A DNA stretch of 64,000 bases, from NCBI GenBank assembly GCA_001769505.1, contig MEOF01000052.1, positions 13,557-77,556 of the forward strand, given 5' to 3'. Made by a program: the position numbers and the translations under genes. Below, piece after piece: positions 4,482-63,589 of the stretch. The notes beneath the pieces were generated by a model that had not been told where the DNA came from, did not search any database, and saw only the letters and a list, made by a program, of their open reading frames with translations. Within the stretch, counting starts at the first letter, position 1, and the number at the start of each line of letters is the position of its first letter. This DNA comes from Bacteroidetes bacterium GWF2_33_38. Its GTDB lineage: Bacteria; Bacteroidota; Bacteroidia; Bacteroidales; GWF2-33-38.

Positions 4482-4689
4482 AAAGTTTATCTAGTTTATA
4501 AAGTCCATAAAGTTTTTAAAGTAGAAAGAAAAGAGATTAGAAGTTGGACGTTAGATGGGCTCGAGTAGCTTGGACATTCTTGTCCGAGAAAATTTATTCG
4601 TGAATGCGATAAGTTATTCAAGTTCATAAAGTCCATAAAATTTGTAAAGTTTTTAAATCTGGGGGATTATATAATTTCAATTTCTAAAA

Positions 4690-5067
4690 TTAAATAGTTT
4701 TTTCGTCTGTGCAAAGTTTAGCCTTTTTATACTTTTTTGCAATAATAAAAATACCTATTGCATAAAGAGCAATGTTAAATATTCCTATCGAGAATACTCC
4801 AATTGAGAATATTCCTGCCGAAAATATTCCTATTGAGAACATTCCTGCCGAAAAAACACCAATACTAAAATCACCGGCTGCGAAAAAGCCCATCGAAAAC
4901 CGACCTGCACTAAAAATTTCATAATGGTTAAAATGTAAAATTCCAGCTACTAAAATTAACACTAAAGCTGTTCCTAAAATCCAAAAATTTGTTTTCATAA
5001 TTCGTTTGTTTTTTTTGATTAATAAAAATTTGTTTCTGCAATGATACGAGCTAAAAAATCGTTGCAA
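4690..5067 (-). CDS. small membrane protein with tandem G-x-F-S-x pentapeptide repeats; likely true start at the internal Met (MKTNFW.., about nt 4998)
   Basis: The sequence FSAGRFSMGFFAAGDFSIGVFSAGMFSIGIFSAGIFSIGVFSIGIF is encoded by 15-nt tandem DNA repeats. No family recognised. Confidence 0.45.
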   Translation of the reverse strand: MQRFFSSYHCRNKFLLIKKNKRIMKTNFWILGTALVLILVAGILHFNHYEIFSAGRFSMGFFAAGDFSIGVFSAGMFSIGIFSAGIFSIGVFSIGIFNIALYAIGIFIIAKKYKKAKLCTDEKTI

Positions 5068-5147
5068 AAATTTATGTGATTACGAACTATAAAATGTGAT
5101 AACAAACTAGCTTGTGTTGCGATTAGCAAGATTTTGTGACGAAATGC

Positions 5148-5200
5148 AAGCCGTTTTATTTAAAATTTGCCACGAAATTTCGAGAAACTGGAACTAAAAT
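5148..5200. repeat. left copy of a 53-nt imperfect direct repeat bracketing the cas12a locus; a pseudo-3' end of a LytTR gene
   Basis: aagccgttttatttaaaatttgccacgaaatttcgagaaactggaactaaaat matches 10348-10400 at 46/53 positions. On the minus strand it reads VPVSRNFVANFK*, versus the genuine LytTR C-terminus VPVSRNYVVNFK*. Confidence 0.85.
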
Positions 5201-5270
5201 ATCTTTAGAAGCAAAGCTTTAGAAAAAGATAAAAAGCAATACTCTACCAATAATGTTAGAAGCAAATATT

Positions 5271-5336
5271 AGAAGCAAAGCTTTTTGAAAAAGCTTTGCT
5301 TCTTTTTGCTTCTTTTCACCAAAAAGCGTTGCTTTT
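5271..5336. repeat. REP-like unit 1: perfect 16-1-16 palindrome agaagcaaagcttttt-g-aaaaagctttgcttct plus a conserved tail
   Basis: Palindrome at 5271-5303. The tail ..tgcttctt..ccaaaaagcgttgctt is shared with the unit at 5748-5828. Degenerate half-copies lie at 5207-5240 and 5257-5267. Confidence 0.8.
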
Positions 5337-5623
5337 TTTACCAATAGTAGAAATTTTAAAAAACGATTTGACAAACAACTATGCTTTGATTCCCAAGGCT
5401 ATCTACAATAGTAGAAATTTTTAAAAACGATTTGACCGTCAATTGTCATTTCTGTATTTTAAATCTACAATAGTAGAAATTTTTAAAAACGATTTGACGT
5501 ATTTTATCTCTATTCTAAGCTCGTATCTACAATAGTAGAAATTTTTAAAAACGATTTGACACAAATATTTCTTGAAAGGCACTACCAATCTACAATAGTA
5601 GAAATTTTAAAAGCCGATTTGAC
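5337..5623 (-). CRISPR. type V-A CRISPR array: 5 repeats of 36 nt and 4 spacers (26-28 nt), transcribed on the minus strand
   Basis: Repeats lie at 5337-5372 (degenerate), 5401-5436, 5463-5498, 5525-5560 and 5588-5623 (3 substitutions). The minus-strand consensus GTCAAATCGTTTTTAAAAATTTCTACTATTGTAGAT ends in the canonical Cas12a handle AATTTCTAC-TATT-GTAGAT. Confidence 0.95.
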
Positions 5624-5650
5624 TCTATGGTCAAAACCAGCACAAGCAAA

Positions 5651-5665
5651 GGTACAAAATATAAG
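5651..5665 (-). promoter_or_regulatory. candidate CRISPR leader promoter (near-consensus Bacteroidota -7 box)
   Basis: The minus strand reads cttaTATATTTTGtacc about 30 nt upstream of the first repeat. It is close to, but not exactly, TAnnTTTG. Confidence 0.25.
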
Positions 5666-5747
5666 GGTTTTTCAAACAAATAATGAAAACTATTTTACCC
5701 CACCTCGTAAAAAAAAAATACAACTATTTCAAATAACTAATTGTTTT

Positions 5748-5828
5748 AGAAGCAAAGCTTTTTAAAAAAGCTTTGCTTCTTTGTGCTTCTTATTGTTTCT
5801 TTTCTCCAAAAAGCGTTGCTTCTTGCTT
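5748..5828. repeat. REP-like unit 2: palindrome agaagcaaagcttttt-a-aaaaagctttgcttct plus a conserved tail
   Basis: Palindrome at 5748-5780. The tail aligns with unit 1 apart from a roughly 13-nt indel. It sits between the RAYT stop and the CRISPR leader. Confidence 0.8.
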
Positions 5829-5839
5829 CAATAAAGCAT

Positions 5840-6430
5840 CTAATCAAAAGAGAATTGTTTAATTAATTCAAACGAAATTTTTTTCTTATGAAAAAATATG
5901 AAATTTTCTTTGTTATCGAACCATTCTATTACCGCTTGTCGTTGCAAATTCGATGGTTTATCGCTCAAAATGCTATTGTAGCTACTCCACTTGTATGCCC
6001 TAAAATCGTTAACATAACCATGGAGTTGTGGATTAGCATGAATATAAAAGACAAGGTTTGTAAAATATTCATTCGTATATATTTCTATTCTTTTGAAAGG
6101 ATTTTCAAATAAACTACCATGCCTACTTTGTTGTTTATTTGTAGCTTTAGAATAACTTGTAAAAAAACGATGAAATGCTTGACTTGGCTTTTCTAAAAGC
6201 TTTGCTTTTTGTAAAAGCAAAGCTTTTTCTTTCACACGTATCAACAAATGAAAATGATTTGGTAATAAACAATATGCAAATGTTTCGACATAATCAGATA
6301 AATATTCGTTATACCGATTGAGAAAAAAGATGTAATTAAGTTCGTTAAAAAATATTTTATCGGAATTATTTCCTCGATTAAAAATATGATAATATTTCCC
6401 TTCTTCGAGTTCTAGTTGATGCTTTTTCAT
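5840..6430 (-). CDS. IS200/RAYT-like Y1 HUH transposase (REP-associated tyrosine transposase-like)
   Basis: HUH motif LLPNHFHLLIRV and C-terminal Tyr motif FYIHANPQLHGYV..WSSY, typical of COG1943/Y1_Tnp proteins. The gene is flanked on both sides by the same REP-like palindrome. Confidence 0.8.
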   Translation of the reverse strand: MKKHQLELEEGKYYHIFNRGNNSDKIFFNELNYIFFLNRYNEYLSDYVETFAYCLLPNHFHLLIRVKEKALLLQKAKLLEKPSQAFHRFFTSYSKATNKQQSRHGSLFENPFKRIEIYTNEYFTNLVFYIHANPQLHGYVNDFRAYKWSSYNSILSDKPSNLQRQAVIEWFDNKENFIFFHKKKISFELIKQFSFD

Positions 6431-6446
6431 GTTTTATTCAGTTTAT

Positions 6447-6479
6447 AGAAGCAAAGCTTTTTGAAAAAGCTTTGCTTCT
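6447..6479. repeat. REP-like palindrome 3 (identical to 5271-5303), in the 63-bp gap between the cas12a stop and the RAYT start
   Basis: agaagcaaagctttttgaaaaagctttgcttct, with perfect 16-bp arms. Confidence 0.85.
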
Positions 6480-6493
6480 TATGTCATTACCTC

Positions 6494-9400
6494 TTATTTT
6501 AGGTTTTGCACAAAACTTAACCATTCTTTGTTGCTAATTGCAAGTTTTATTTTTTTCAAATCATCGGCTTTTTTAATTTGTTGCACACACCACAAACCTT
6601 TCAATGCAATGTGAAAAGCTCCGTTTGCATCGGCATCTTTTGGCAAATTTGGCATTGCATTTCGGCTATCGTAAAAAACTCCGTTTTTTGCTACTGGCGA
6701 AAGTATAAAATCAATATCGGTTCCCGATTTCGATTGCCGCAACATAAGTGTTAAAGCCAAATAATGTAAAAGTTTCGAAAACAATTGTTTATCGTCTTGC
6801 AAAAGCAATTCGGTTTTTAAATTTTTTCCATTTTTATATTCAATTTTAAATTTATCAAAAATCAATTTCAATTCATTTGTTACATTCACTTCGTCGCTTG
6901 CTTTGGTTTGTGGATTGTAGCGGTAGCGAACGTCGCTGTGTGTGCAAACTGTCCATTTTGTTTGGCTTCCTTCAGCTTTTTCGGTAAATTTTTTATAGTC
7001 GAATTCAAATTCAAAATAATTTTTATCGGCATTAAATTTTATACTTTCAAATTTTTCGAAAAACAATTTTGCTTTTTCAACACTTTCGTATTTGGGTTTC
7101 AAAAAATCGACAAAACCTGTTGCTGGGTCAATTTTGCTTGTGTTCCAAGCCGGAACATAAAACAAAAATCCGCTTTGTTTTCCCATTTTCTCGAAACTTT
7201 CAAATTTGTTAGTCAATTGCAAAGCATTTAAAACTCCTGCGGTTTCGTTTACATCATTATTTTTGAAAACCAAATAATTGAGTTTTTCAATCAACATTTT
7301 TTCAAGTTTTTGGTAAACTTGTCGTTCCACTTTTTGTCTGCCACGCATAAAACCTGCGTTTAAATCTTCCATAACCACAATTGCGTTTTCGTCAACCATC
7401 ATTGTTGCAATTTGATGCACAACTTGGCTCAAATATCCTTCTTTGAGTTCTTTTATGGTTTCAATTGTTTTCCAATCTTGACGAGCGTTTGCTCGTTCAT
7501 TTTCTTTGTTTACCAACAAATTTTTATAATCGGTTTCGTGTTCTTGGCTTGTTGCAATTACGTTTAACGATTGTTGTTTCAACAATTCGCCTTTTTGATT
7601 TATAAGTGTGAGATAAATCAAATGTCGTTCGCCACGGTCTAAACCAATAATTTTAACATCCGAATTCGATTTCAAATATTCGTTCACTTTTGTATTCAAA
7701 TATTCGTTTCCTTCGGCTTTAAAATTCAACGTTATTGGAACGTGAAATTGAAATTTATCTAATGTAAAACGCTTATCTTTAATTAAATCGTAATTAAACG
7801 AACTTTGTTTTTTATTGTTTAGTGGATTTTTATTGTCAATTGCTTGATTTGCTTTGTGAATAATTCTATCAGTTTGTTTTATTGACGATTGTCTGAAAAA
7901 AACTTCGGCTTCTCCGTTCAATTTATAAACCACGTTTTGCAAATTTTGCTCGTCAAACAACATTTTCCAATACAAAGTGTGCATATTTGGTTTTCCTTTG
8001 CTGAAAGGCGAAAAATCTTTATTATAGATTTGAAATAAATACAATTTTCCTTCGTCAACTAATTGATTTATATATGTTTCGTCGAGTTTTGTGAAAGTTA
8101 ATTTATAACCTTGTTTTTCAACTTCTTTGTAAAACTCGCTTAAATCGTTGTACGTTTCAGTTTTCGAAAATTGATGATTAAAATGTTTCCAATCGGTATG
8201 TTTTGCTATTGATTGTTTGAAAAAATCAATCAAATTTTCCATATCTTTTCTAACAAAAGCATCGCCTTTTTTGTGCGTTTCTTTTTGATATTTACTTTGT
8301 ATTTCGGCTGATGGTTGAAAACTTTCAATTCCTTTTGCTGATAAAAATACTTTTGGTAACATTTTATTTGCTCCTGGCAATAATTTGTAATTCATTTTTT
8401 CAAAAGCCGTTTCTTCGTTTTTGCAAACAGGAACATTTCTTTCGAAAATTCGATTGTTCGATTTTGACATAATTCCCAAATAAAACAAACCATTTTTTCT
8501 GAAAATTACGCTTGTGTTAACGGGTTCTTTGTTTACATCCCAACCATTTAGCAATGTGCTATTTTCAAAATTTAGTTTTATTTTTTCGGTGCTGTAAGCT
8601 TTTTGAGTTAAGTAATTTCTTACTTTATTATAAATTGAAATTGTTTGGCTCAAATGTTCAAATAAAGCAGTAAATAAACTGTAAAAAAGTTCGTCTTTTT
8701 CTTTGTCTTTATCTTTTAAACTCAAAGGTTTGAGAAAATGAATTAAATTTAAAATGCTATCCAAAAAATCTTTTATTTGCGAAACTTGTTCTTTTTGATT
8801 TCCCAATTTTATATTTTCGGGATATGGTTCGTTCAATAAATCTTTAATTACTACATAATTATGATGAATTTTTTGAAGCAAATCAATTTTGTTGTCTTTG
8901 TCCAAACCAAGTTTTGCAAAATATTCACTAACAATATTTTTGTTGTTTTTTTCTTTAATTATTTCACTATCACATTCATTTAATGCGGTTTGTATAGTTT
9001 CAATATTGAAATCTTGTTTTAACCATTTTGCTTTACGTTCGTCGTATTTTTCTTGTTTTTCTTTTGATGAAATTGGATTTTGTTTTTCATAATAATCGTT
9101 CAAAGCTGATGAAATTATGCTCCAATCACCAAATAATTTTTGTGAAATATCGGTCAACGAAGTATCATTTCTTAAATAAATTTTAGATAAATCGAATGTT
9201 TTTAAACCAATAATTAAATTTTTGATTGCTTCAAAAATGTTTGTAGTGTGTCCATCGTCTTCGTAGTTACACAAAACGCTACTATAAAATTGTTCAATAT
9301 TTTCGAGTAATTGAGCATCGGTTTCAAAAGTTTCAGCAACAAAAGAAACGCTATGTCTGTCGCTTAAAATTTGCTTGTAAAGTTGTTTGAATTTTGCTTG

Positions 9401-10240
9401 TTTTTTCTTTTTGTCGGTTTGTTTTTGGTTATAATCGGTATTTATATATTCGTTTAAACCTTTAATTTTTGTTTTTCCTTCATCGGCAGTTCTTCCACCA
9501 ATAACAATGTTGTAAAGTTCAATTCCTGTTTGTGTAAGTGTTTGGTTAAAAAAACTTAATGAGAAAATTTCGTCTAAAGTTTTTCCTTGCACAATTTCTT
9601 CCATTTCAACAAGTGTTTTGTTCAAATCTGAAATTAATTCGGGAGCATCTTTTTTAATTTTTTCATAAATTTTCAAATTATCTATAAACTTTGGCAAGTT
9701 TTCGTTAACCAAACGATATGCAATTGCGGTCGCTTTTTCATCGGCAACATACATATTTCGTCTATTTTGGTGAAAACCCGTGAAATAGGTTGTGAAATCT
9801 TTGAATTCGTTTACTAATTCTTTTTGTTCGTCGTCAACAAAATTTAATAAATCTTGTTTTATCAATTCTTTTGCAAAAAGGTTTTTAAAACGTTCTTTAA
9901 TTTCATCATTTGGATTTTTTGCAAAAGCATCAGCAATTTGTTTACGGAGTGAATTGCGAATGTTATCAAATTCTTTTTTATCGGTATCGTCTTTTTCTTT
10001 TTTGTTGAATATCGTTTCGTAAGTTTCTAAACCGTGCAATTTAAAATCGCATAAAACCATTTCAATGAAATATTTATGATATTCATCAATAATTTTCTTT
10101 ACTTTTTTATAACTAACAGCTCTTTCATTGTCTTTTTCAATTAATCCATTTATTTCAATAAATTCTTTAGTTTTTCCTTGTGGAATTAGCTCAAAACGTA
10201 AAGTTTTCGATAATGAAAATTGATTTGTAAATTGTTTCAT
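6494..10240 (-). CDS. cas12a: Cas12a (Cpf1), type V-A CRISPR effector nuclease
   Basis: 1248 aa with the hallmark N-terminus FTNQFSLSKTLRFELIPQGKT. RuvC-I IIGLDRGERHLIY, RuvC-II IVVMEDLNAGFMRGR and RuvC-III KDADANGAFHIALKGLW all retain their acidic catalytic residues. A cognate array lies downstream on the same strand. Confidence 0.97.
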   Translation of the reverse strand: MKQFTNQFSLSKTLRFELIPQGKTKEFIEINGLIEKDNERAVSYKKVKKIIDEYHKYFIEMVLCDFKLHGLETYETIFNKKEKDDTDKKEFDNIRNSLRKQIADAFAKNPNDEIKERFKNLFAKELIKQDLLNFVDDEQKELVNEFKDFTTYFTGFHQNRRNMYVADEKATAIAYRLVNENLPKFIDNLKIYEKIKKDAPELISDLNKTLVEMEEIVQGKTLDEIFSLSFFNQTLTQTGIELYNIVIGGRTADEGKTKIKGLNEYINTDYNQKQTDKKKKQAKFKQLYKQILSDRHSVSFVAETFETDAQLLENIEQFYSSVLCNYEDDGHTTNIFEAIKNLIIGLKTFDLSKIYLRNDTSLTDISQKLFGDWSIISSALNDYYEKQNPISSKEKQEKYDERKAKWLKQDFNIETIQTALNECDSEIIKEKNNKNIVSEYFAKLGLDKDNKIDLLQKIHHNYVVIKDLLNEPYPENIKLGNQKEQVSQIKDFLDSILNLIHFLKPLSLKDKDKEKDELFYSLFTALFEHLSQTISIYNKVRNYLTQKAYSTEKIKLNFENSTLLNGWDVNKEPVNTSVIFRKNGLFYLGIMSKSNNRIFERNVPVCKNEETAFEKMNYKLLPGANKMLPKVFLSAKGIESFQPSAEIQSKYQKETHKKGDAFVRKDMENLIDFFKQSIAKHTDWKHFNHQFSKTETYNDLSEFYKEVEKQGYKLTFTKLDETYINQLVDEGKLYLFQIYNKDFSPFSKGKPNMHTLYWKMLFDEQNLQNVVYKLNGEAEVFFRQSSIKQTDRIIHKANQAIDNKNPLNNKKQSSFNYDLIKDKRFTLDKFQFHVPITLNFKAEGNEYLNTKVNEYLKSNSDVKIIGLDRGERHLIYLTLINQKGELLKQQSLNVIATSQEHETDYKNLLVNKENERANARQDWKTIETIKELKEGYLSQVVHQIATMMVDENAIVVMEDLNAGFMRGRQKVERQVYQKLEKMLIEKLNYLVFKNNDVNETAGVLNALQLTNKFESFEKMGKQSGFLFYVPAWNTSKIDPATGFVDFLKPKYESVEKAKLFFEKFESIKFNADKNYFEFEFDYKKFTEKAEGSQTKWTVCTHSDVRYRYNPQTKASDEVNVTNELKLIFDKFKIEYKNGKNLKTELLLQDDKQLFSKLLHYLALTLMLRQSKSGTDIDFILSPVAKNGVFYDSRNAMPNLPKDADANGAFHIALKGLWCVQQIKKADDLKKIKLAISNKEWLSFVQNLK

Positions 10241-27890: not shown

Positions 27891-27931
27891 ATAGAATCTA
27901 AATTGTTCATTATAGAACTAAATACAAAAAA

Positions 27932-27960
27932 GAAAAGCGGAGAATCTCCGCTTTTCTTTT
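27932..27960. terminator. bidirectional rho-independent terminator between convergent genes
   Basis: Perfect 12-bp arms gaaaagcggaga / tctccgcttttc, flanked by A-runs and T-runs. Confidence 0.75.
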
Positions 27961-29354
27961 TAATATCTGTAATGATCTGGTTTATATGGACCATGTTCAG
28001 GAACACCAATGTATTTTGCCTGATCAGGAGTCAATTTGGTTAATTTAACTCCAATATGATTGAGATGAAGTCTTGCAACCTCTTCGTCTAAGTGTTTTGG
28101 CAAACGATATACATCAATATCATAATTATTTTTCCATAAATCTAGCTGAGCAAGGGTTTGATTTGTAAATGAATTACTCATAACAAATGAAGGGTGTCCT
28201 GTTGCACAACCAAGATTTACCAATCGACCTTCGGCAAGAAGAATGATTGAGTGTCCATCAGGGAAAAAATACTGATCAACTTGAGGTTTAACATTTACTT
28301 TTTTAACCCCTGTAATTGCCTCCATTTTTTCAACTTGAATTTCGTTGTCGAAGTGTCCAATGTTGCAAACAATGGCTTGATCAATCATTTTCGACATATG
28401 GTCTGCCGTAATAATATCTTTATTTCCAGTAGTGGTAACATATATATTTCCTTCGCAAAGAGCATCTTCAACTGTTGTAACCTGAAAACCTTCCATTGCC
28501 GCTTGCAATGCACAAATTGGGTCGATTTCAGTAACAATTACTCTTGCTCCATAGCTTTTCATCGAGCGAGCACAACCTTTTCCTACATCGCCATATCCGC
28601 AAACAACCACAACTTTTCCAGCAAGCATGATATCTGTTGCTCGTTTAATTCCGTCAGCAAGAGATTCTTGACATCCATAAAGATTATCAAATTTTGATTT
28701 TGTTACTGAATCATTAACATTAATAGCTGGAAACAATAGTTTTCCTTCTTCTTTCATTTGATACAAGCGATGAACTCCAGTAGTTGTTTCTTCCGAAACG
28801 CCTTTTACTTTTTCGGCAACTTTATGCCACTTTTGTGGATTCTTTTTTATACTTTCTTTTAAAATTAAAAGCAATTCTTTTTCATCAGGACCACTTGGAG
28901 TTCTATCAAGGATTGATGCATTTTTCTCGGCATCTCGCCCCACATGAATCATCATAGTTGCATCACCACCATCATCAACGATTAAATCAGGACCTGAGCC
29001 ATCGGGAAAACACAAAGCTTTTTCGGTACACCACCAATACTCTGCTAATGTTTCACCTTTCCACGCATAGACAGGAATTCCTACAGCCGCTATTGCAGCA
29101 GCAGCATGATCTTGAGTTGAAAAAATATTACAACTGCACCAACGAACATTTGCTCCAAGTTCGACTAATGTTTCAATTAATACTGCCGTTTGAATTGTCA
29201 TGTGTAAAGACCCCATGATCTTGGCTCCTTTTAAAGGTTTTTCTGCACCAAACTTTTTTCTTAACGACATCAGCCCTGGCATCTCATTTTCAGCCAAAAC
29301 TATTTCTTTTCTTCCCCATTCTGCGAGGGAAATATCTTTTACTTTATAATCCAT
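27960..29354 (-). CDS. ahcY: adenosylhomocysteinase
   Basis: 464 aa. N-terminus [26 protein letters not shown] and NAD-binding [10 protein letters not shown]. Confidence 0.95.
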
Positions 29355-53192: not shown

Positions 53193-54771
53193 CTGAAAGG
53201 GACTTCCCCAATAAAAAAGGGGAAGTCCCTTTTTTATTGGGGCTGCTTTCCCCGATGGTGTGGGCGATTGAGGCAAACACAGAATTTAGTTTTAATGTTC
53301 GAACTGCCCCAATTTTTCTATCATACACGATTCCTTCAGGAAACACCAATCTTTGTAATCTCTCTTTCAATACAACATTGCCGGAAGCCCACATTTCTTG
53401 CAGGTTGTCGCAAATATAAATTGCACGATTCAGTATGTTTTTATTGTTCGAAATGGGATTTTGACAATTGTTCAATTCTTTTATAATTTCAATTTGCTCG
53501 GCTTTATACTTTGAATAGAATCTCTCAAAAGTTTCTTTGCTCATTTCTCCCATAACGTAGAATTTTTCTTCAATCAAATCTAATTTCTTTGTAACTTCTG
53601 TTAGATTCGTTTTTATGGCTTTTTCTTTCTCCGTGTTGCTTTTAGTTAATTCATTGAAGGTGTTTTCCAATTGGAATAAAACAGCCTTTTTAAGGCTTTC
53701 TTTTAGCCGAAAATTAGCAAGCATTGAAATGAAAAGCTGATGCATATCCTTTGCGTTTTTATTACATTGACAACCTATTGTTCTACATTTATAATAATAG
53801 ATGTTTCTTGCTTTCATAAGGTAACCTGTAAATGGTTGTCCACATTCGGAACATTTCAGAAAAACCTTTAATGGAATATTATCATTTTCTGCTTTATGAG
53901 GAACTCCATACAGAGGAGATTCCGATATAATATTGTTAACTTTCAAAAAAGTTTCCTTGCTTACCATTGCTTCATGTGTTCCATCTACAACCTGTCCGTT
54001 TAGCAAGCCATGAGAAACTACTCCACAATAAAACGGATTGCAGAATATTTTGTGGAGCTTCTGTTTGTAAATGTTGGCTCCCATTGCACGTAGCTTCAGA
54101 ATAATATCGTCATTCTTCAATCCATTAAGTTTCCATTCAAAGGCATTTTTTAGCTTTTTACCCTCTTCGTTCAACACAATTTTTCTTGTGCCATTTATTT
54201 TAATTACATCGTATCCTTGTGGAGGTTGGGTTACCCATATTCCTTTTTTTAGTTTCTCAACCATTCCTGCTACAGCTTTTTGTTTGCGAAGCTGATTATC
54301 GTATTCCGAAAAAAGAAATTGAATATTCTGATGAAGTACTCCGCTTGGATTGCTTGTATCGGTTGGTTGAGTTACAGCAAAAACCGAAATTCCCTGCTTC
54401 TCCCTTAAATCAGTAACTATTTTAATGGCTGCTCCTCCGGTACGACTAAACCTGTCTAATGTATAAACCAATACTTGACTTATTTTTCCGTTTGATTTTT
54501 TTATAAACTCAAGCATTCGGTTAAATTCTTTTCTTCCATCGGTTTTAGCACTTTCATAAGTCCCCCCGAAATAAGCTACAATATTAAGATTATGCTTTTT
54601 TGAATATTCTTCAATCGCTTTTTTCTGGGTTTCAAGACTTAGGTTTTTGTCTGCCTGTTCTTTACTTGACACACGAGTATAAACGACTACATTGCCTGTA
54701 GTTACTCGTTTAACAATGGTAGGACTCTTTTTGCCGAACCTTTTGGCAAATGTTGCATCTGTTGTCATCAT
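53158..54771 (-). CDS. large serine recombinase (resolvase/invertase N-domain + recombinase domain + zinc ribbon)
   Basis: Catalytic Ser context VVVYTRVSSKEQ, ..YTLDRFSRTG.., and zinc ribbon CSECGQPF..YYKCRTIGCQC followed by a coiled-coil. The last ~30 codons read through the tRNA terminator and 35 nt of the tRNA gene. Confidence 0.9.
   Translation of the reverse strand: MMTTDATFAKRFGKKSPTIVKRVTTGNVVVYTRVSSKEQADKNLSLETQKKAIEEYSKKHNLNIVAYFGGTYESAKTDGRKEFNRMLEFIKKSNGKISQVLVYTLDRFSRTGGAAIKIVTDLREKQGISVFAVTQPTDTSNPSGVLHQNIQFLFSEYDNQLRKQKAVAGMVEKLKKGIWVTQPPQGYDVIKINGTRKIVLNEEGKKLKNAFEWKLNGLKNDDIILKLRAMGANIYKQKLHKIFCNPFYCGVVSHGLLNGQVVDGTHEAMVSKETFLKVNNIISESPLYGVPHKAENDNIPLKVFLKCSECGQPFTGYLMKARNIYYYKCRTIGCQCNKNAKDMHQLFISMLANFRLKESLKKAVLFQLENTFNELTKSNTEKEKAIKTNLTEVTKKLDLIEEKFYVMGEMSKETFERFYSKYKAEQIEIIKELNNCQNPISNNKNILNRAIYICDNLQEMWASGNVVLKERLQRLVFPEGIVYDRKIGAVRTLKLNSVFASIAHTIGESSPNKKGTSPFLLGKSLSAEREGFEPPDP
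53199..53235 (+). terminator. rho-independent terminator of tRNA-Ser
   Basis: gggacttcccc-aataaaaaa-ggggaagtccc (11-bp perfect stem) followed by TTTTTT. Confidence 0.8.
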
Positions 54772-59083: not shown

Positions 59084-60862
59084 CTTACCACCATCGGTCA
59101 ACTCTCCATTATTAACTATTTTATAATAATAAATTCCTTGCTTTAAAGCTGAAATGTCTATTAACTGTTTTTCTGTTTTTAGCTCTGTGGTTAATACTTC
59201 TTTGCCAAACAAATCATACACTTCGACTACGCTCAGTGTCCGATTATCGTTTGCCGGATACTGATTACTGATTATCGTTAACTGCTCACTTGCAGGATTC
59301 GGATAAATCGTAAATCGCAAATCGTAATTCGTAATTTCTTTAGTGCTTACATCCAAAAATACCGTAATCGTATAATACGCCGTATCGCTGCAATAATCAT
59401 TATTTGTAATTAGCTGTACTGTTTTAATTCCGGTGTGTGTGTAGCTGTGCTGTGGAAACTGCTCTGTACTTGTGATTGTATCGCCAAAATCCCATTGCCA
59501 GTTTGTGCCGAAGTTACTTATTATGCCAAATTGTACTGTTGCCCCTTCGGTTAAATAAACTGTATCGGAATCTGCTGTTATTTCTGAATTTACTGTATAG
59601 CAGCTATACGACCAGCAACCTTCATAAGTTGTAGTATCAATAGTGCAGGTATTACCCATACTATCGGTTTTTAGCAACCATAAATCGTTTTTGGCAGGAA
59701 GTGAATTATTTATTATGTAGCCTGTGGCGATAAACCCACCATCGTTGGTAAGATTTAAATCTTCTACATAGGTCTGTTTTGTACCACCATAGTAATTGAA
59801 ACTTTTTGACCAAAGAGTATCCCCTTGCATGTTAAATTTTAAAAGCCATACACGGCGACCATTTGGTGTGCCTGATAAATCTGCTTTACCTCCTGCTACA
59901 ATATAAGAACCGTCTGATAACTGACGCACTATTTTAAAATATTCATTTAATCCTGTTGCTCCAAATGTTTTACTCCATTGCTGATTACCAGAACTGTCGG
60001 TTTTTACAATATATCCGTTGTAATAATTATCTGTCATTTTTTTGTCCCCTACAATTATATATCCTTTATCAGATGTAGCAATTGTAAAACCACGATATTC
60101 TTCTGCTGTTGTACCAAATGATTTTTTCCATTCCTGATTTCCCAAACTATCGGTTTTTAACAGGAACATATCATTTGAACTTGTTGAAGGGTTATAATAA
60201 TCGCCCCCAATTATAAATCCTCCATCGGCGGTTAAATCTATTGATTTCAGATTATCATTGTAATTGGCTGCTCCGTATTCTCTTTGCCATTGTATATTGC
60301 CGAGACTGTCAGTTTTTATTAGAAAAACATTTGAATAAGTTTGAGTTGCATCTAAATTAATTCCACCAATAATAAAACCCCCATCGGAGGTTTGTTTGTG
60401 CATAAATCCGTGGTCGCTAACTCCACCTTCTATTGTTTTAAAAGTTACTGAATCGCCATTTTCATTTAATGTAAATAAAAAAGTATCTGTATCTATATTT
60501 ACAGTATCAGGAATATCCCCACAAACAGAATAATAATTATTTGGTAATTGAATTATACTATATCCATCTTCACCATAACCTTGATACCAATCATACATTT
60601 TTGTCCATGTTGTATCTCCTTTTAAATCAATTTTGACAAAAAGTATTGCATAATAGTCGCCATAAATAATTCCAGACGATATATAACCACTATCTGAAGT
60701 TTGAATTATTGACCAGCCTCCATTAACTTGATTATTATAATCAACAAGCCGATGAAAGGCATATTGTGATTTACTTATATTTACTATTGTAAAAAACAAT
60801 ATTAAAATTACTAAAGATTTTTTCATAAAATATTGAATTAAGAAAGGTAGCTTTATTTTCAT
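59066..60862 (-). CDS. T9SS cargo protein, paralog 1: beta-propeller-like repeats + PKD-like domain + CTD
   Basis: ~50-aa repeats (..DGGFIIGG.....LLKTDSLGNxxW..), a PKD-like segment (WQWDFGDTITSTEQFPQHSYTHTG) and a CTD (IYPNPASEQLTI..VYDLFGKEV..GIYYYKI). Confidence 0.75.
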   Translation of the reverse strand: MKIKLPFLIQYFMKKSLVILILFFTIVNISKSQYAFHRLVDYNNQVNGGWSIIQTSDSGYISSGIIYGDYYAILFVKIDLKGDTTWTKMYDWYQGYGEDGYSIIQLPNNYYSVCGDIPDTVNIDTDTFLFTLNENGDSVTFKTIEGGVSDHGFMHKQTSDGGFIIGGINLDATQTYSNVFLIKTDSLGNIQWQREYGAANYNDNLKSIDLTADGGFIIGGDYYNPSTSSNDMFLLKTDSLGNQEWKKSFGTTAEEYRGFTIATSDKGYIIVGDKKMTDNYYNGYIVKTDSSGNQQWSKTFGATGLNEYFKIVRQLSDGSYIVAGGKADLSGTPNGRRVWLLKFNMQGDTLWSKSFNYYGGTKQTYVEDLNLTNDGGFIATGYIINNSLPAKNDLWLLKTDSMGNTCTIDTTTYEGCWSYSCYTVNSEITADSDTVYLTEGATVQFGIISNFGTNWQWDFGDTITSTEQFPQHSYTHTGIKTVQLITNNDYCSDTAYYTITVFLDVSTKEITNYDLRFTIYPNPASEQLTIISNQYPANDNRTLSVVEVYDLFGKEVLTTELKTEKQLIDISALKQGIYYYKIVNNGELTDGGKLVIVR

Positions 60863-60878
60863 AAAGCTACCTTAAAAT

Positions 60879-63541: not shown

Positions 63542-63589
63542 AATCTTATTAAATTAAAAAAGTAGCCTTTTGGAAAGGCTACTTTTAAG

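Follow-up and report, generated by a model that had tools for sequence, protein, structure and literature searches.

What is the gene for a RAYT-like HUH enzyme, with copies of a single palindrome on either side of it, doing between a cas12a gene and its CRISPR array? The locus lies in a stretch of DNA from Bacteroidetes bacterium GWF2_33_38 that was analyzed over its whole length of 64 kb (the window). The order of features is cas12a, palindrome P3, the HUH gene, a tail with palindrome P2, the leader and array, a second tail with palindrome P1, and decayed copies of the palindrome. Ever since RAYTs and REP sequences were described, it has been asked what role they have in the cell.

The effector gene, cas12a (6494-10240, minus strand; 1248 aa), scores 1436 bits against TIGR04330, and the Pfam REC1, REC2, PI, RuvC, and NUC domains all match. 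This effector and an array of five repeats ending in ..AATTTCTACTNNTGTAGAT place the locus in type V-A. The array (5342-5623, minus strand) is made up of five 36-nt repeats and four spacers of 26-28 nt. The repeats are of the Cas12a type and end in AATTTCTACTATTGTAGAT, and the last, leader-distal repeat is truncated after ...CTACTATTG. Direct comparison of the leader (5624-5747, minus strand) with that of a sister locus, L031, revealed two common motifs, AGGTGGGGTAAA (5694-5705) and TTTTGTACC (5651-5659), which may belong to a promoter. Genes for LytTR and DUF4349 proteins are found upstream of cas12a, and a TonB-dependent receptor gene beyond the array. A tblastn search for a cas4-cas1-cas2 adaptation module found no match in the 64-kb window. 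An earlier note on this DNA had proposed that the HUH element displaced that module, which is at odds with the sister locus. L031 has the same order of cas12a, HUH gene, leader, and array, with a Cas12a that is 55% identical and with different neighboring genes, and it has no adaptation genes either. Since the loss is shared, it is apparently older than the split between the window and L031. In type I-C and II-C loci, furthermore, the HUH gene coexists with cas4, cas1, and cas2.

The 33-nt perfect palindrome, AGAAGCAAAGCTTTTT-N-AAAAAGCTTTGCTTCT, occurs exactly three times in the window. P3 (6447-6479; 16+1+16) lies 14 nt past the cas12a stop codon and 16 nt ahead of the HUH start codon. P2 (5748-5780) is located between the HUH gene and the leader, and P1 (5271-5303) follows the array. 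None of the palindromes is assigned to a strand. There were no matches in any of 100 shuffled sequences, even with three mismatches allowed. The 14-nt half-site is found 10 times against 0.11 expected, and all occurrences fall inside 5207-6479. The decayed copies (5207-5267) consist of a degenerate palindrome at 5207-5240, which holds an exact half-site (5207-5220), and a partial half-site at 5257-5267. The three perfect copies are predicted to fold into hairpins of 15-16 bp (−15 to −17 kcal/mol, z = −4.6 to −6.1; for P3, −15.6 kcal/mol and z = −6.1). A related palindrome (15+3+15), AAAAGCTTTGCTTTT-TGT-AAAAGCAAAGCTTTT, lies inside the HUH ORF at 6195-6227. It is translated as ..EKALLLQKAKLLEK.. 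in a disordered loop right after the HUH strand; the earlier note had overlooked it. Four full and two decayed copies are thus packed into 1.3 kb around a single HUH gene. No further copy was found in the remaining 62 kb of the window, where four other palindromes have unrelated sequences. The three full copies, the two half-copies, and their absence elsewhere in the window were all as the earlier note had described them. Because the palindrome is missing from those 62 kb, it seems unlikely that the source genome has it as a high-copy REP family. A single hairpin lies downstream of every transcription unit (cas12a, the HUH gene, and the array), and a consensus scan labels P2 terminator-like and P1 terminator-like on both strands. 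The suggestion that the hairpins terminate or insulate transcription is therefore plausible. An Rfam search of 4500-7000 returned one match, to an Enterococcus sRNA, which was below threshold and attributable to chance.

The array and its leader are bracketed by two repeated units of ~85 nt, each containing a palindrome and a tail in the same orientation, as had been noticed earlier. Between the HUH stop codon and P2, the tail of unit A (5781-5833, minus strand) is made up of half-sites in degenerate form (GAAGCAA.., AAGCAACGCTTTTTGG). The tail of unit B (5304-5341, minus strand) adjoins the truncated terminal repeat, with ATTG common to both. Identity between the tails of copies 1 and 2 is 84% over 50 nt (5297-5346 vs. 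5784-5833), and the palindrome-plus-tail stretches (5269-5314 vs. 5746-5791) are 96% identical. The preferred reading of the two units is a local duplication of one composite unit, in which the second copy became joined to the truncated terminal repeat. We also considered the array as a mobile unit with the REP units as its ends, as the earlier note had proposed, and rejected it. We found no other locus with an array bracketed in this way, and the locus is unchanged across eight contigs. The contigs represent different samples, match one another at 100% over 2.2 kb, and encode an identical HUH protein; such identity is uninformative on array turnover or an empty site. A comparison by eye found no convincing similarity between palindromes and CRISPR repeats within the same loci.

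The HUH gene (5840-6430, minus strand) lies between P2 and P3 and encodes a protein of 196 aa with the motifs HFHLLI and FYIHANP, as first noted. The HUH motif H59-F-H61 and the presumed catalytic Y129 are invariant in 28 homologs, and the ORFs and catalytic residues stay intact at 50-80% divergence. Among NCBIfam models, REP_Tyr_transpos (NF047646) matches best with 53.7 bits, under the cut-off of 80, and PF01797 (Y1_Tnp) gives 17.9 bits, under the cut-off of 23. Most family members have no recorded Pfam domain. Judged by these scores, the protein is a distant relative and not an equivalog. The AF2 model has a pLDDT of 85.7, falling below 50 at residues 71-78. E. coli TnpA-REP (4ER8) is the only sequence match in the PDB and also the top Foldseek match (E = 1.4e−7, TMt 0.71, 158 aligned columns). 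The fold matches to the IS608 and ISDra2 TnpA proteins are weaker (E about 3e−4, TM normalized to the query 0.35-0.42). Sequence and predicted fold thus support a RAYT-kind HUH/Y1 enzyme, as the earlier note had it, closer to E. coli TnpA-REP than to IS200/IS608 TnpA. PADLOC has no model that matches the three HUH proteins tested, and a PHROGs search returned nothing beyond one chance-level match (E = 0.0068).

The palindromes are not peculiar to the window. About 90 HUH relatives have a common anatomy of a hairpin, a gene with an in-frame hairpin, and a second hairpin, with a modal palindrome length of 33 nt. Perfect palindromes lie within 150 nt of the gene on the upstream side in 43 of 83 loci and on the downstream side in 45 of 83, against a background of 0.075 per kb. 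A palindrome is found inside the HUH ORF in 32 of 90 relatives, and the loop position homologous to the in-ORF palindrome of the window holds from zero to four palindrome-encoded repeats. The palindrome sequence varies by protein lineage, and internal and flanking palindromes change together (e.g., L028, L047, and L121). Its frame is kept: of 96 unique palindromes, 94% have A at −16 and 98% have T at −2. Where copies are paired (L032, L003, and P1 with the decayed copies of the window), the pairs are direct or irregular. The copies are single perfect hairpins, not inverted REPIN doublets. Since hairpin-gene-hairpin recurs across the family and palindrome sequence tracks protein lineage, we read the palindromes as probable cognate hairpins of the HUH protein, a reading that these comparisons support. 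The earlier note had held that the same gene order in orthologous loci without palindromes would make the adjacency ancestral and unrelated to REP activity. The first half of this stands, because L031 keeps the order with flanking palindromes that are of the same family and decayed; the HUH-cas12a adjacency is ancestral. The second half does not, as the palindromes are a property of the whole family.

Copies are also found away from the HUH gene. In L115 an extra palindrome lies between cas3 and cas5, and in L121 extra copies are found ahead of cas9 and in the cas1-cas2 interval. In L036 and L028 they are located between cas2 and the array and in-frame inside cas1, where they are translated as a loop insertion in Cas1. 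The 24-base core of the window palindrome occurs at 19 sites in other Bacteroidota MAGs, nine of them in one MAG; the source organism is absent from the scanned collection. These sites lie 2-20 nt past stop codons or between convergent genes. The dispersed copies are REP-like in placement, because they directly follow stop codons in other Bacteroidota genomes, in line with the earlier description of the palindromes as REP-like. A tblastn of the HUH protein against these 19 loci found no HUH gene nearby.

Ten of the 11 distinct HUH homologs that were looked up are CRISPR-linked, and L036-L043 and L050 were added from a metagenome scan. The layouts are cas7-HUH-cas4-cas1-cas2 in type I-C, cas9-HUH-cas1-cas2 in type II-C, and cas12a-HUH-array in type V-A. 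At the effector/adaptation boundary and on the same strand, the gene is present in six I-C loci (L037, L115, L119, L120, L122, and one contig without DNA) and in three II-C loci (L040, L041, and L121). Elsewhere it is found divergently upstream of cas9 (L116) or beyond the array (L117 and L032), and in the window and L031 it is present without any adaptation genes. There are at least five different placements, all within CRISPR loci. The CRISPR-linked proteins form one clade, which includes the protein of the window, in a neighbor-joining tree (196 columns, no support values); around genes of the other clades, no cas genes were found over distances of up to 8 kb. Two cas1-linked members (L039 and L100) fall outside the clade in this tree, and a close homolog that is 69% identical (L118) has no adjoining cas genes on its 5.6-kb contig. 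A k-mer detector also flagged L100 and L092 as carrying CRISPR arrays. The former is made up of plain tandem repeats with repeated "spacers" and the latter, with a 14-nt repeat, looks like the same kind of artifact, and neither was counted.

Within a CRISPR type, HUH identity is 61-68% and Cas1 identity 63-65%, and in II-C the divergence of the two proteins is correlated (rho = 0.47, p = 0.004). Between types, the HUH proteins are about 58% identical (53-72% for clade members in I-C and cas9 loci), compared with about 31% for Cas1. The clade thus recurs in CRISPR-Cas loci of types I-C, II-C, and V-A in unrelated neighborhoods. The clade has long been resident in these loci and has moved between the three types. 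We found no earlier description of a linkage between RAYT, HUH, or COG1943 proteins and CRISPR in the literature searchable without a subscription.

The explanation we consider best, and on balance probable, is a self-maintaining RAYT-REP module that resides in CRISPR loci, has 33-nt cognate hairpins, and seeds them locally at tolerated sites. The 196-aa protein would be a RAYT-like HUH/Y1 single-strand DNA endonuclease, and the 33-nt palindromes its REP-like hairpins. By homology with E. coli TnpA-REP, the enzyme would bind the hairpins in single-stranded DNA and nick and rejoin the strand beside them. Over time this could seed hairpin copies near the enzyme's own gene. Copies would persist where they are harmless, directly after transcription units such as cas12a, the HUH gene, and the array, as possible terminator or insulator hairpins. 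They would also persist in-frame in disordered protein loops, the enzyme's own loop included.

A module of this kind with side effects on transcription is more likely than a direct CRISPR function, the rival that deserves most attention. Here the HUH protein would be a genuine accessory protein, a new Cas-like family kept by selection and working with the hairpins. Its role might be the handling of single-stranded prespacers beside Cas4 and Cas1, or the maintenance or regulation of the array or locus. We regard this as possible but rather unlikely. It would account for the same-strand position at the effector/adaptation boundary in six I-C and three II-C loci, for the intact ORFs and catalytic residues, for the co-divergence with Cas1 within a type, and for the fact that each of the five or more placements is inside a CRISPR locus. 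To our knowledge, II-C systems otherwise have no fourth adaptation gene. Yet the position is variable (L116, L117, and L032), adaptation genes are missing from the window and L031, one close homolog (L118) is outside a cas locus, and elsewhere in the family the same architecture is found away from CRISPR. The sequence and hairpin specificity of HUH enzymes would also be a poor fit to the processing of arbitrary prespacers, and neither a PADLOC model nor a report of CRISPR linkage was found for the protein. Hitch-hiking alone does not readily account for the strict confinement of a clade to CRISPR loci of three types, and a direct function may be involved. In its broader form, in which the clade and its hairpins were recruited independently by I-C, II-C, and V-A as a functional component, the idea is a tentative one with the balance somewhat against it; examples would be single-stranded DNA handling in spacer acquisition, or locus control or rearrangement via hairpins at module boundaries.

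The remaining alternatives explain less. P3-HUH-P2 is about 730 bp long with a hairpin at each end, shares its HUH/Y1 chemistry with IS200/IS605, and sits in a locus without adaptation genes. It could be taken for an autonomous insertion sequence of the IS200 kind, one whose recent arrival between cas12a and the array cost the locus its cas4-cas1-cas2 genes, and the earlier note leaned this way. Such an origin is improbable, given that the unit is single copy in the 64-kb window, that L031 keeps the arrangement at 55% Cas12a identity with decayed palindromes, and that the locus shows no variation among the eight contigs, which were drawn from different samples. Both ends also carry the same perfect palindrome, not imperfect hairpins that differ between left end and right end, the protein is nearer to RAYT than to IS200/IS608 TnpA, and relatives coexist with cas1-cas2. 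We give little credence to the palindromes being ordinary intrinsic terminators of the lineage that cluster around the HUH gene by coincidence. Their placement right after stop codons, in the window and in other MAGs, and their terminator-like labels in the consensus scan would fit, but the other terminator-like palindromes of the window have unrelated sequences, four full and two decayed copies crowd 1.3 kb around one HUH gene, and flanking and in-ORF copies are family-wide and change with the protein lineage. Cas12 effectors descend from TnpB, and the HUH gene adjoins cas12a in two loci; the earlier note had pointed to the TnpA partner of TnpB in this context. That the gene is a relic of the TnpA that accompanied the TnpB ancestral to Cas12a is scarcely credible. 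Members of the same clade with 53-72% identity occur in type I-C and cas9 loci, the fold and sequence are nearer to RAYT, and at about 58% identity the proteins of different CRISPR types are much too similar to have parted before Cas12a arose.

For CRISPR biology, the result is a recurrent gene that lacks annotation, located beside Cas12a and, in I-C and II-C loci of Bacteroidota, at the effector/adaptation boundary, together with short hairpins that punctuate cas operons, even in-frame in cas1. A RAYT-like clade confined to three CRISPR types is also a testable setting for the role of RAYTs and REPs. Operons with and without the gene can be compared, and the read-outs (spacer acquisition, cas expression, and interference) are already known. 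If the pair is a functional CRISPR component, this would be the first concrete cellular role for RAYT-REP. If the self-maintaining module is a passenger, it would be a clear case of a selfish element specialized for defense loci.

Among known systems, the closest are the RAYT/TnpA-REP proteins with their REPs and REPINs (E. coli YafM, PDB 4ER8, and the Pseudomonas RAYTs). As in these, the protein of the window has an HUH motif and a single catalytic Tyr, and its gene is flanked by its own palindromes, extragenic at the 3′ ends of genes. The gene is present once in the 64-kb window, and its divergence within a CRISPR type is comparable to that of Cas1; it may, like RAYT genes, be single copy and vertically retained. 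It differs in falling below the NCBIfam and Pfam cut-offs, in having perfect 33-nt hairpins (16+1+16) where RAYT REPs are imperfect and paired into REPIN doublets, in carrying a palindrome in-frame in the enzyme's own ORF, and in the low palindrome copy number of the 64-kb window. The clade is confined to CRISPR-Cas loci, and we found no report of such confinement for RAYTs; Bertels et al. (2017; PMC5581495) go no further than speculation that RAYTs might have a "CRISPR-like" activity. With the TnpA proteins of the IS200/IS605 family (IS608, ISDra2, and IS200) the protein shares the HUH/Y1 fold and, presumably, recognition of hairpins in single-stranded DNA, and the unit of about 0.7 kb is the size of IS200. 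These TnpA proteins are weaker structural matches, and the window protein has a further helical region, about 50 aa long, at its C terminus. Its unit has the same perfect palindrome at both ends, no tnpB, and no second copy in the 64-kb window, and HUH homologs differ by 30-50%, unlike the near-identical multiple copies of IS200/IS605. In I-C and II-C loci the gene resembles the adaptation-side accessory genes (cas4 in I-C and V-A, csn2 in II-A) in lying directly upstream of cas4 or cas1 on the same strand, but it is not homologous to them and is also found away from adaptation genes (the window, L031, L116, and L117). The palindromes in the HUH loop and in the Cas1 loop of L036 and L028 recall the Rickettsia palindromic elements, which are inserted in-frame in genes and translated as loop insertions. 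Those elements are about 100-150 nt long, whereas the palindromes described here are 33 nt and are tied to a neighboring HUH gene.

All features of the CRISPR locus lie on the minus strand of the window. The cas12a gene (10240 to 6494; 1248 aa; TIGR04330, 1436 bits) is followed by a perfect 33-nt palindrome, P3 (6479 to 6447), and by the RAYT-like HUH ORF (6430 to 5840; 196 aa). A 53-nt tail of degenerate half-sites leads to a second palindrome, P2 (5780 to 5748), a 124-nt leader and an array of five Cas12a-type repeats and four spacers (5623 to 5342), whose final repeat is truncated after ...CTACTATTG. Beyond the array lie a second tail, the palindrome P1 (5303 to 5271) and decayed palindrome copies (5267-5207). 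The positions that the earlier note gave for palindromes, gene and array were all correct on re-check; it overlooked a fourth palindrome, in frame within the HUH ORF (6195-6227). The AGAAGCAAAGCTTTTT-N-AAAAAGCTTTGCTTCT palindrome occurs exactly three times in the window and 0 times in 100 shuffles. For its 14-nt half-site the chance expectation is 0.11 copies, yet there are 10, all inside 5207-6479. The two units of tail and palindrome that bracket the array are direct repeats (84-96% identical), and the best reading is that one composite unit was duplicated. The hairpins are stable when folded, P1 and P2 have terminator-like scores, and a hairpin follows each transcription unit (14 nt past the cas12a stop, 59 nt past the HUH stop and 38 nt past the last repeat). 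They would insulate cas12a, the HUH gene and the array from one another as separate transcription units. Elsewhere in the window, four further strong palindromes (27927-27961, 53206-53242, 60844-60873 and 63558-63586) are unrelated in sequence to P1-P3 and are presumably ordinary terminators. No cas1, cas2, cas4, cas9, cas3, second array or second HUH gene was found in the 64-kb window. A toxin-antitoxin-like pair of nucleotidyltransferase (102 aa) and HEPN (129 aa) genes (546-1243; Pfam assignments from an identical contig) adjoins thymidylate synthase, some 4 kb away from the CRISPR locus.

The HUH motif (H59, H61) and the conserved tyrosine (Y129) are invariant across 28 homologues. The window protein scores 53.7 bits against REP_Tyr_transpos and 17.9 bits against Y1_Tnp, both under the curated cut-offs, and by these thresholds it is only a distant RAYT relative. 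Its sole sequence match in the PDB is E. coli TnpA-REP (4ER8), which is also the top structural match (E = 1.4e-7, TMt 0.71) of its AlphaFold model (pLDDT 85.7); the TnpA proteins of IS608, ISDra2 and IS200 are clearly weaker matches (E about 3e-4 to 1e-3). Both matches place the protein nearer to RAYTs than to IS200 TnpA, and the clear lead of 4ER8 suggests that it works like a RAYT. By analogy with TnpA-REP, the enzyme would bind the hairpins in ssDNA and nick and rejoin beside them, keeping the hairpins and now and then copying them nearby.

A database search returned 713 relatives, and a metagenome scan at least 568 loci encoding relatives, 80 of which were fetched. We surveyed these and other fetched loci for perfect palindromes with arms of at least 12 nt. 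Of 83 loci, 43 have a palindrome no more than 150 nt upstream of the HUH gene and 45 have one downstream, while 32 of 90 have one within the ORF (median position +217 nt); background density more than 1 kb from HUH genes is 0.075 per kb. Exact 33-nt length is seen in 70/132 gene-proximal palindromes. The sequences are lineage-specific (AGACCTGACAGGTTT.., AACCCTTCCAGAGTTT.., GGTTTCACCCGCGGGTGAAACC.., GATGCCACCTTTT.., among others) and share a conserved frame: among 96 unique palindromes, A stands at -16 in 94% and T at -2 in 98%, with a pyrimidine at -11 and -3 and a purine at -7. Within a locus, the in-ORF and flanking palindromes share one type. This co-variation of palindrome with protein lineage, the pattern expected at sequence level of a protein and its cognate hairpin, all but rules out that the palindromes are unrelated terminators.

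Immediately past the HUH strand comes a variable segment, and it is here that the in-ORF palindrome lies. In this segment relatives have a peptide such as KALHLEDAKLL in 0-4 copies, encoded by the 33-nt palindrome AAAAGCTTTGCATCTT-G-AAGATGCAAAGCTTTT; copy number varies among close relatives. Disorder in the model coincides exactly with this segment (residues 71-78, pLDDT below 50). Together with the repeat peptides, this suggests that the hairpin occupies a tolerant protein loop. Possibly it controls expression of its own gene.

Genomic context, drawn throughout from metagenome contigs, was looked up for 12 listed homologues picked by similarity and contig size, the window's own included; 10 of the other 11 lie in CRISPR-Cas loci, the exception being on a 5.6-kb contig (L118). 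One is a sister V-A locus (L031; cas12a-HUH-leader-array) with neighbours unlike the window's. Type I-C loci (L115 plus one further contig, L119, L120, L122) read cas3-cas5-cas8c-cas7-HUH-cas4-cas1-cas2-array, and a II-C locus (L121) cas9-HUH-cas1-cas2. In three II-C variants the gene precedes cas1-cas2 (L028), is divergent from cas9 and adjoins a WYL gene (L116), or lies past a 40-repeat array (L117); in L032, two palindromes stand between HUH and an array. Further loci came from the metagenome scan: L037 (I-C), L040 and L041 (II-C), and the HUH-cas1... loci L036, L038, L039, L043 and L050, all confirmed by Pfam and tblastn. There are at least five distinct placements of the HUH gene, each inside a CRISPR-Cas locus.

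In a neighbour-joining tree of 83 proteins, built without support values, the CRISPR-linked loci form one clade, L039 and L100 excepted, and every clade member with sufficient flanking sequence is CRISPR-linked. No cas gene or array was found in the other clades, where the flanks of at least 20 loci extend over several kb, to a maximum of 8 kb. Divergence of HUH and Cas1 is alike within type II-C (61% vs 63% identity; rho = 0.47, p = 0.004) and type I-C (68% vs 64.5%), whereas across the I-C and II-C loci HUH identity is 53-72% (mean 58%) and Cas1 identity 26-40% (mean 31%). This points to long co-inheritance of the HUH gene with cas operons plus movement among CRISPR types. We lean towards reading the HUH-palindrome module as a passenger specialised for CRISPR loci; that the protein is a CRISPR accessory protein seems to us less likely.

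Several of these loci have features of their own. In L116, a WYL/WCX-domain gene on the opposite strand (8702-9730), beside the II-C locus, has its 3′ end facing that of the HUH gene; WYL proteins are CRISPR-linked regulators. The cas9 adjoining the HUH gene in L040 (3658-7796) is split into two overlapping ORFs of 807 and 579 aa, either a frameshift/pseudogene or an assembly error. L028 (1-3734) opens with a cas9 C-terminal fragment, followed by an ATPase_2 gene, ORFs of 156 and 250 aa of unassigned function and HUH-cas1-cas2; it carries two palindrome types, AACCCTGCCAGAG.. and GATGCCACC...

Hairpin copies are also spread through the cas operons. In L115 they lie between cas3 and cas5; in L121 upstream of cas9, in the HUH-cas1 gap and twice in the cas1-cas2 gap; and in L036 and L028 in the gap that separates cas2 from the array. 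Within cas1 of L036 (1363-1395) and L028 (5142-5199), the locus palindrome lies in frame and adds 10-15 residues (TLPEFETLAG..) absent from the other II-C Cas1 proteins compared. A palindrome identical to the window's adjoins the truncated first repeat of the II-C-type array of L032, and in the window a REP tail adjoins the truncated last repeat. The window's cluster of P3, in-ORF copy, P2, P1 and decayed copies fits such a pattern of local seeding. In L100, about nine REP palindromes 3′ of the HUH gene form a regular 79-80-nt tandem array (1500-2170) immediately 5′ of a cas1 gene (Pfam 287 bits), and a second tandem repeat of 63 nt lies upstream of the HUH gene (424-680). These repeats are array-like, but we reject them as a CRISPR array since the interspaces are repeated, not unique.

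A search for the 24-base palindrome core gave 19 sites, spread over six groups of Bacteroidota MAGs; a single Flavobacteriales MAG accounts for nine, and none of the 8-kb loci around the sites contains an HUH gene. The sites lie 2-20 nt past stop codons or between convergent genes, a placement classic for REPs and terminators. Identical cores at apparently the same site between the same convergent genes of different MAGs (L012, 6990-7016; L016, 1692-1718) have diverged flanks, which suggests that the hairpin sequence itself is under selection. One of the sites is in Flavobacteriales MAG H5_BAC5 (L003, 6569-6850), where two REP palindromes and a duplicated 70-nt spacer separate a type IX secretion gene from a solitary sequence that resembles a II-C repeat, TTGTGAATAGCTTCAAAATTGTAAGAC. 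This sequence stands about 90 nt before cas9 and is possibly a tracrRNA anti-repeat. No further palindrome copy is present in the remaining 62 kb of the window, so a family of hundreds in the source genome is unlikely; ten to thirty copies would be compatible.

The earlier note, which pointed to the TnpA/TnpB ancestry of Cas12, had suggested that the IS200/RAYT-like element may have displaced the adaptation module and that the REP-bounded array could be a mobilisable or rearrangeable unit. An IS200/IS605 element is contradicted by the same perfect hairpin at both ends, the single copy in the window and the RAYT-like protein. Nor is the gene a TnpA relic of Cas12's origin, as its clade is also present in I-C and cas9 loci. 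The array gives no sign of movement: the locus does not vary among eight contigs drawn from different samples, and no bracketed array was found in the other loci compared. As for displacement, relatives coexist with cas1-cas2, so the HUH gene alone does not displace these genes. L031 (Cas12a 55% and HUH 56-70% identical to the window's) has the same gene order, also without cas4-1-2, and the same-family palindromes at its flanks (AGAAGCAA...AAAAAGCTTTGCTT) survive only in decayed form; the arrangement is thus old. Both loci, which lack cas1-cas2, share the leader motifs AGGTGGGGTAAA and TTTTGTACC (window 5651-5705; L031 6940-7010), candidates for a promoter or leader-recognition element. Recombination between hairpins flanking cas1-cas2, arranged as in L036 and L028, could have deleted the module and left the exact layout of the window.

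No PADLOC or PHROG model covers the HUH protein, and we found no report of RAYT-CRISPR linkage in the literature searched; the closest approach is PMC5581495, which speculates that RAYTs and REPINs may function 'in a CRISPR-like way'. RAYTs with their REPs and REPINs are the closest known system. The family described here differs from it in its sub-threshold scores, in perfect single 33-nt hairpins rather than REPIN doublets, in a copy number that is not high in the 64-kb window, in a hairpin within the ORF, and in its residence in CRISPR loci.
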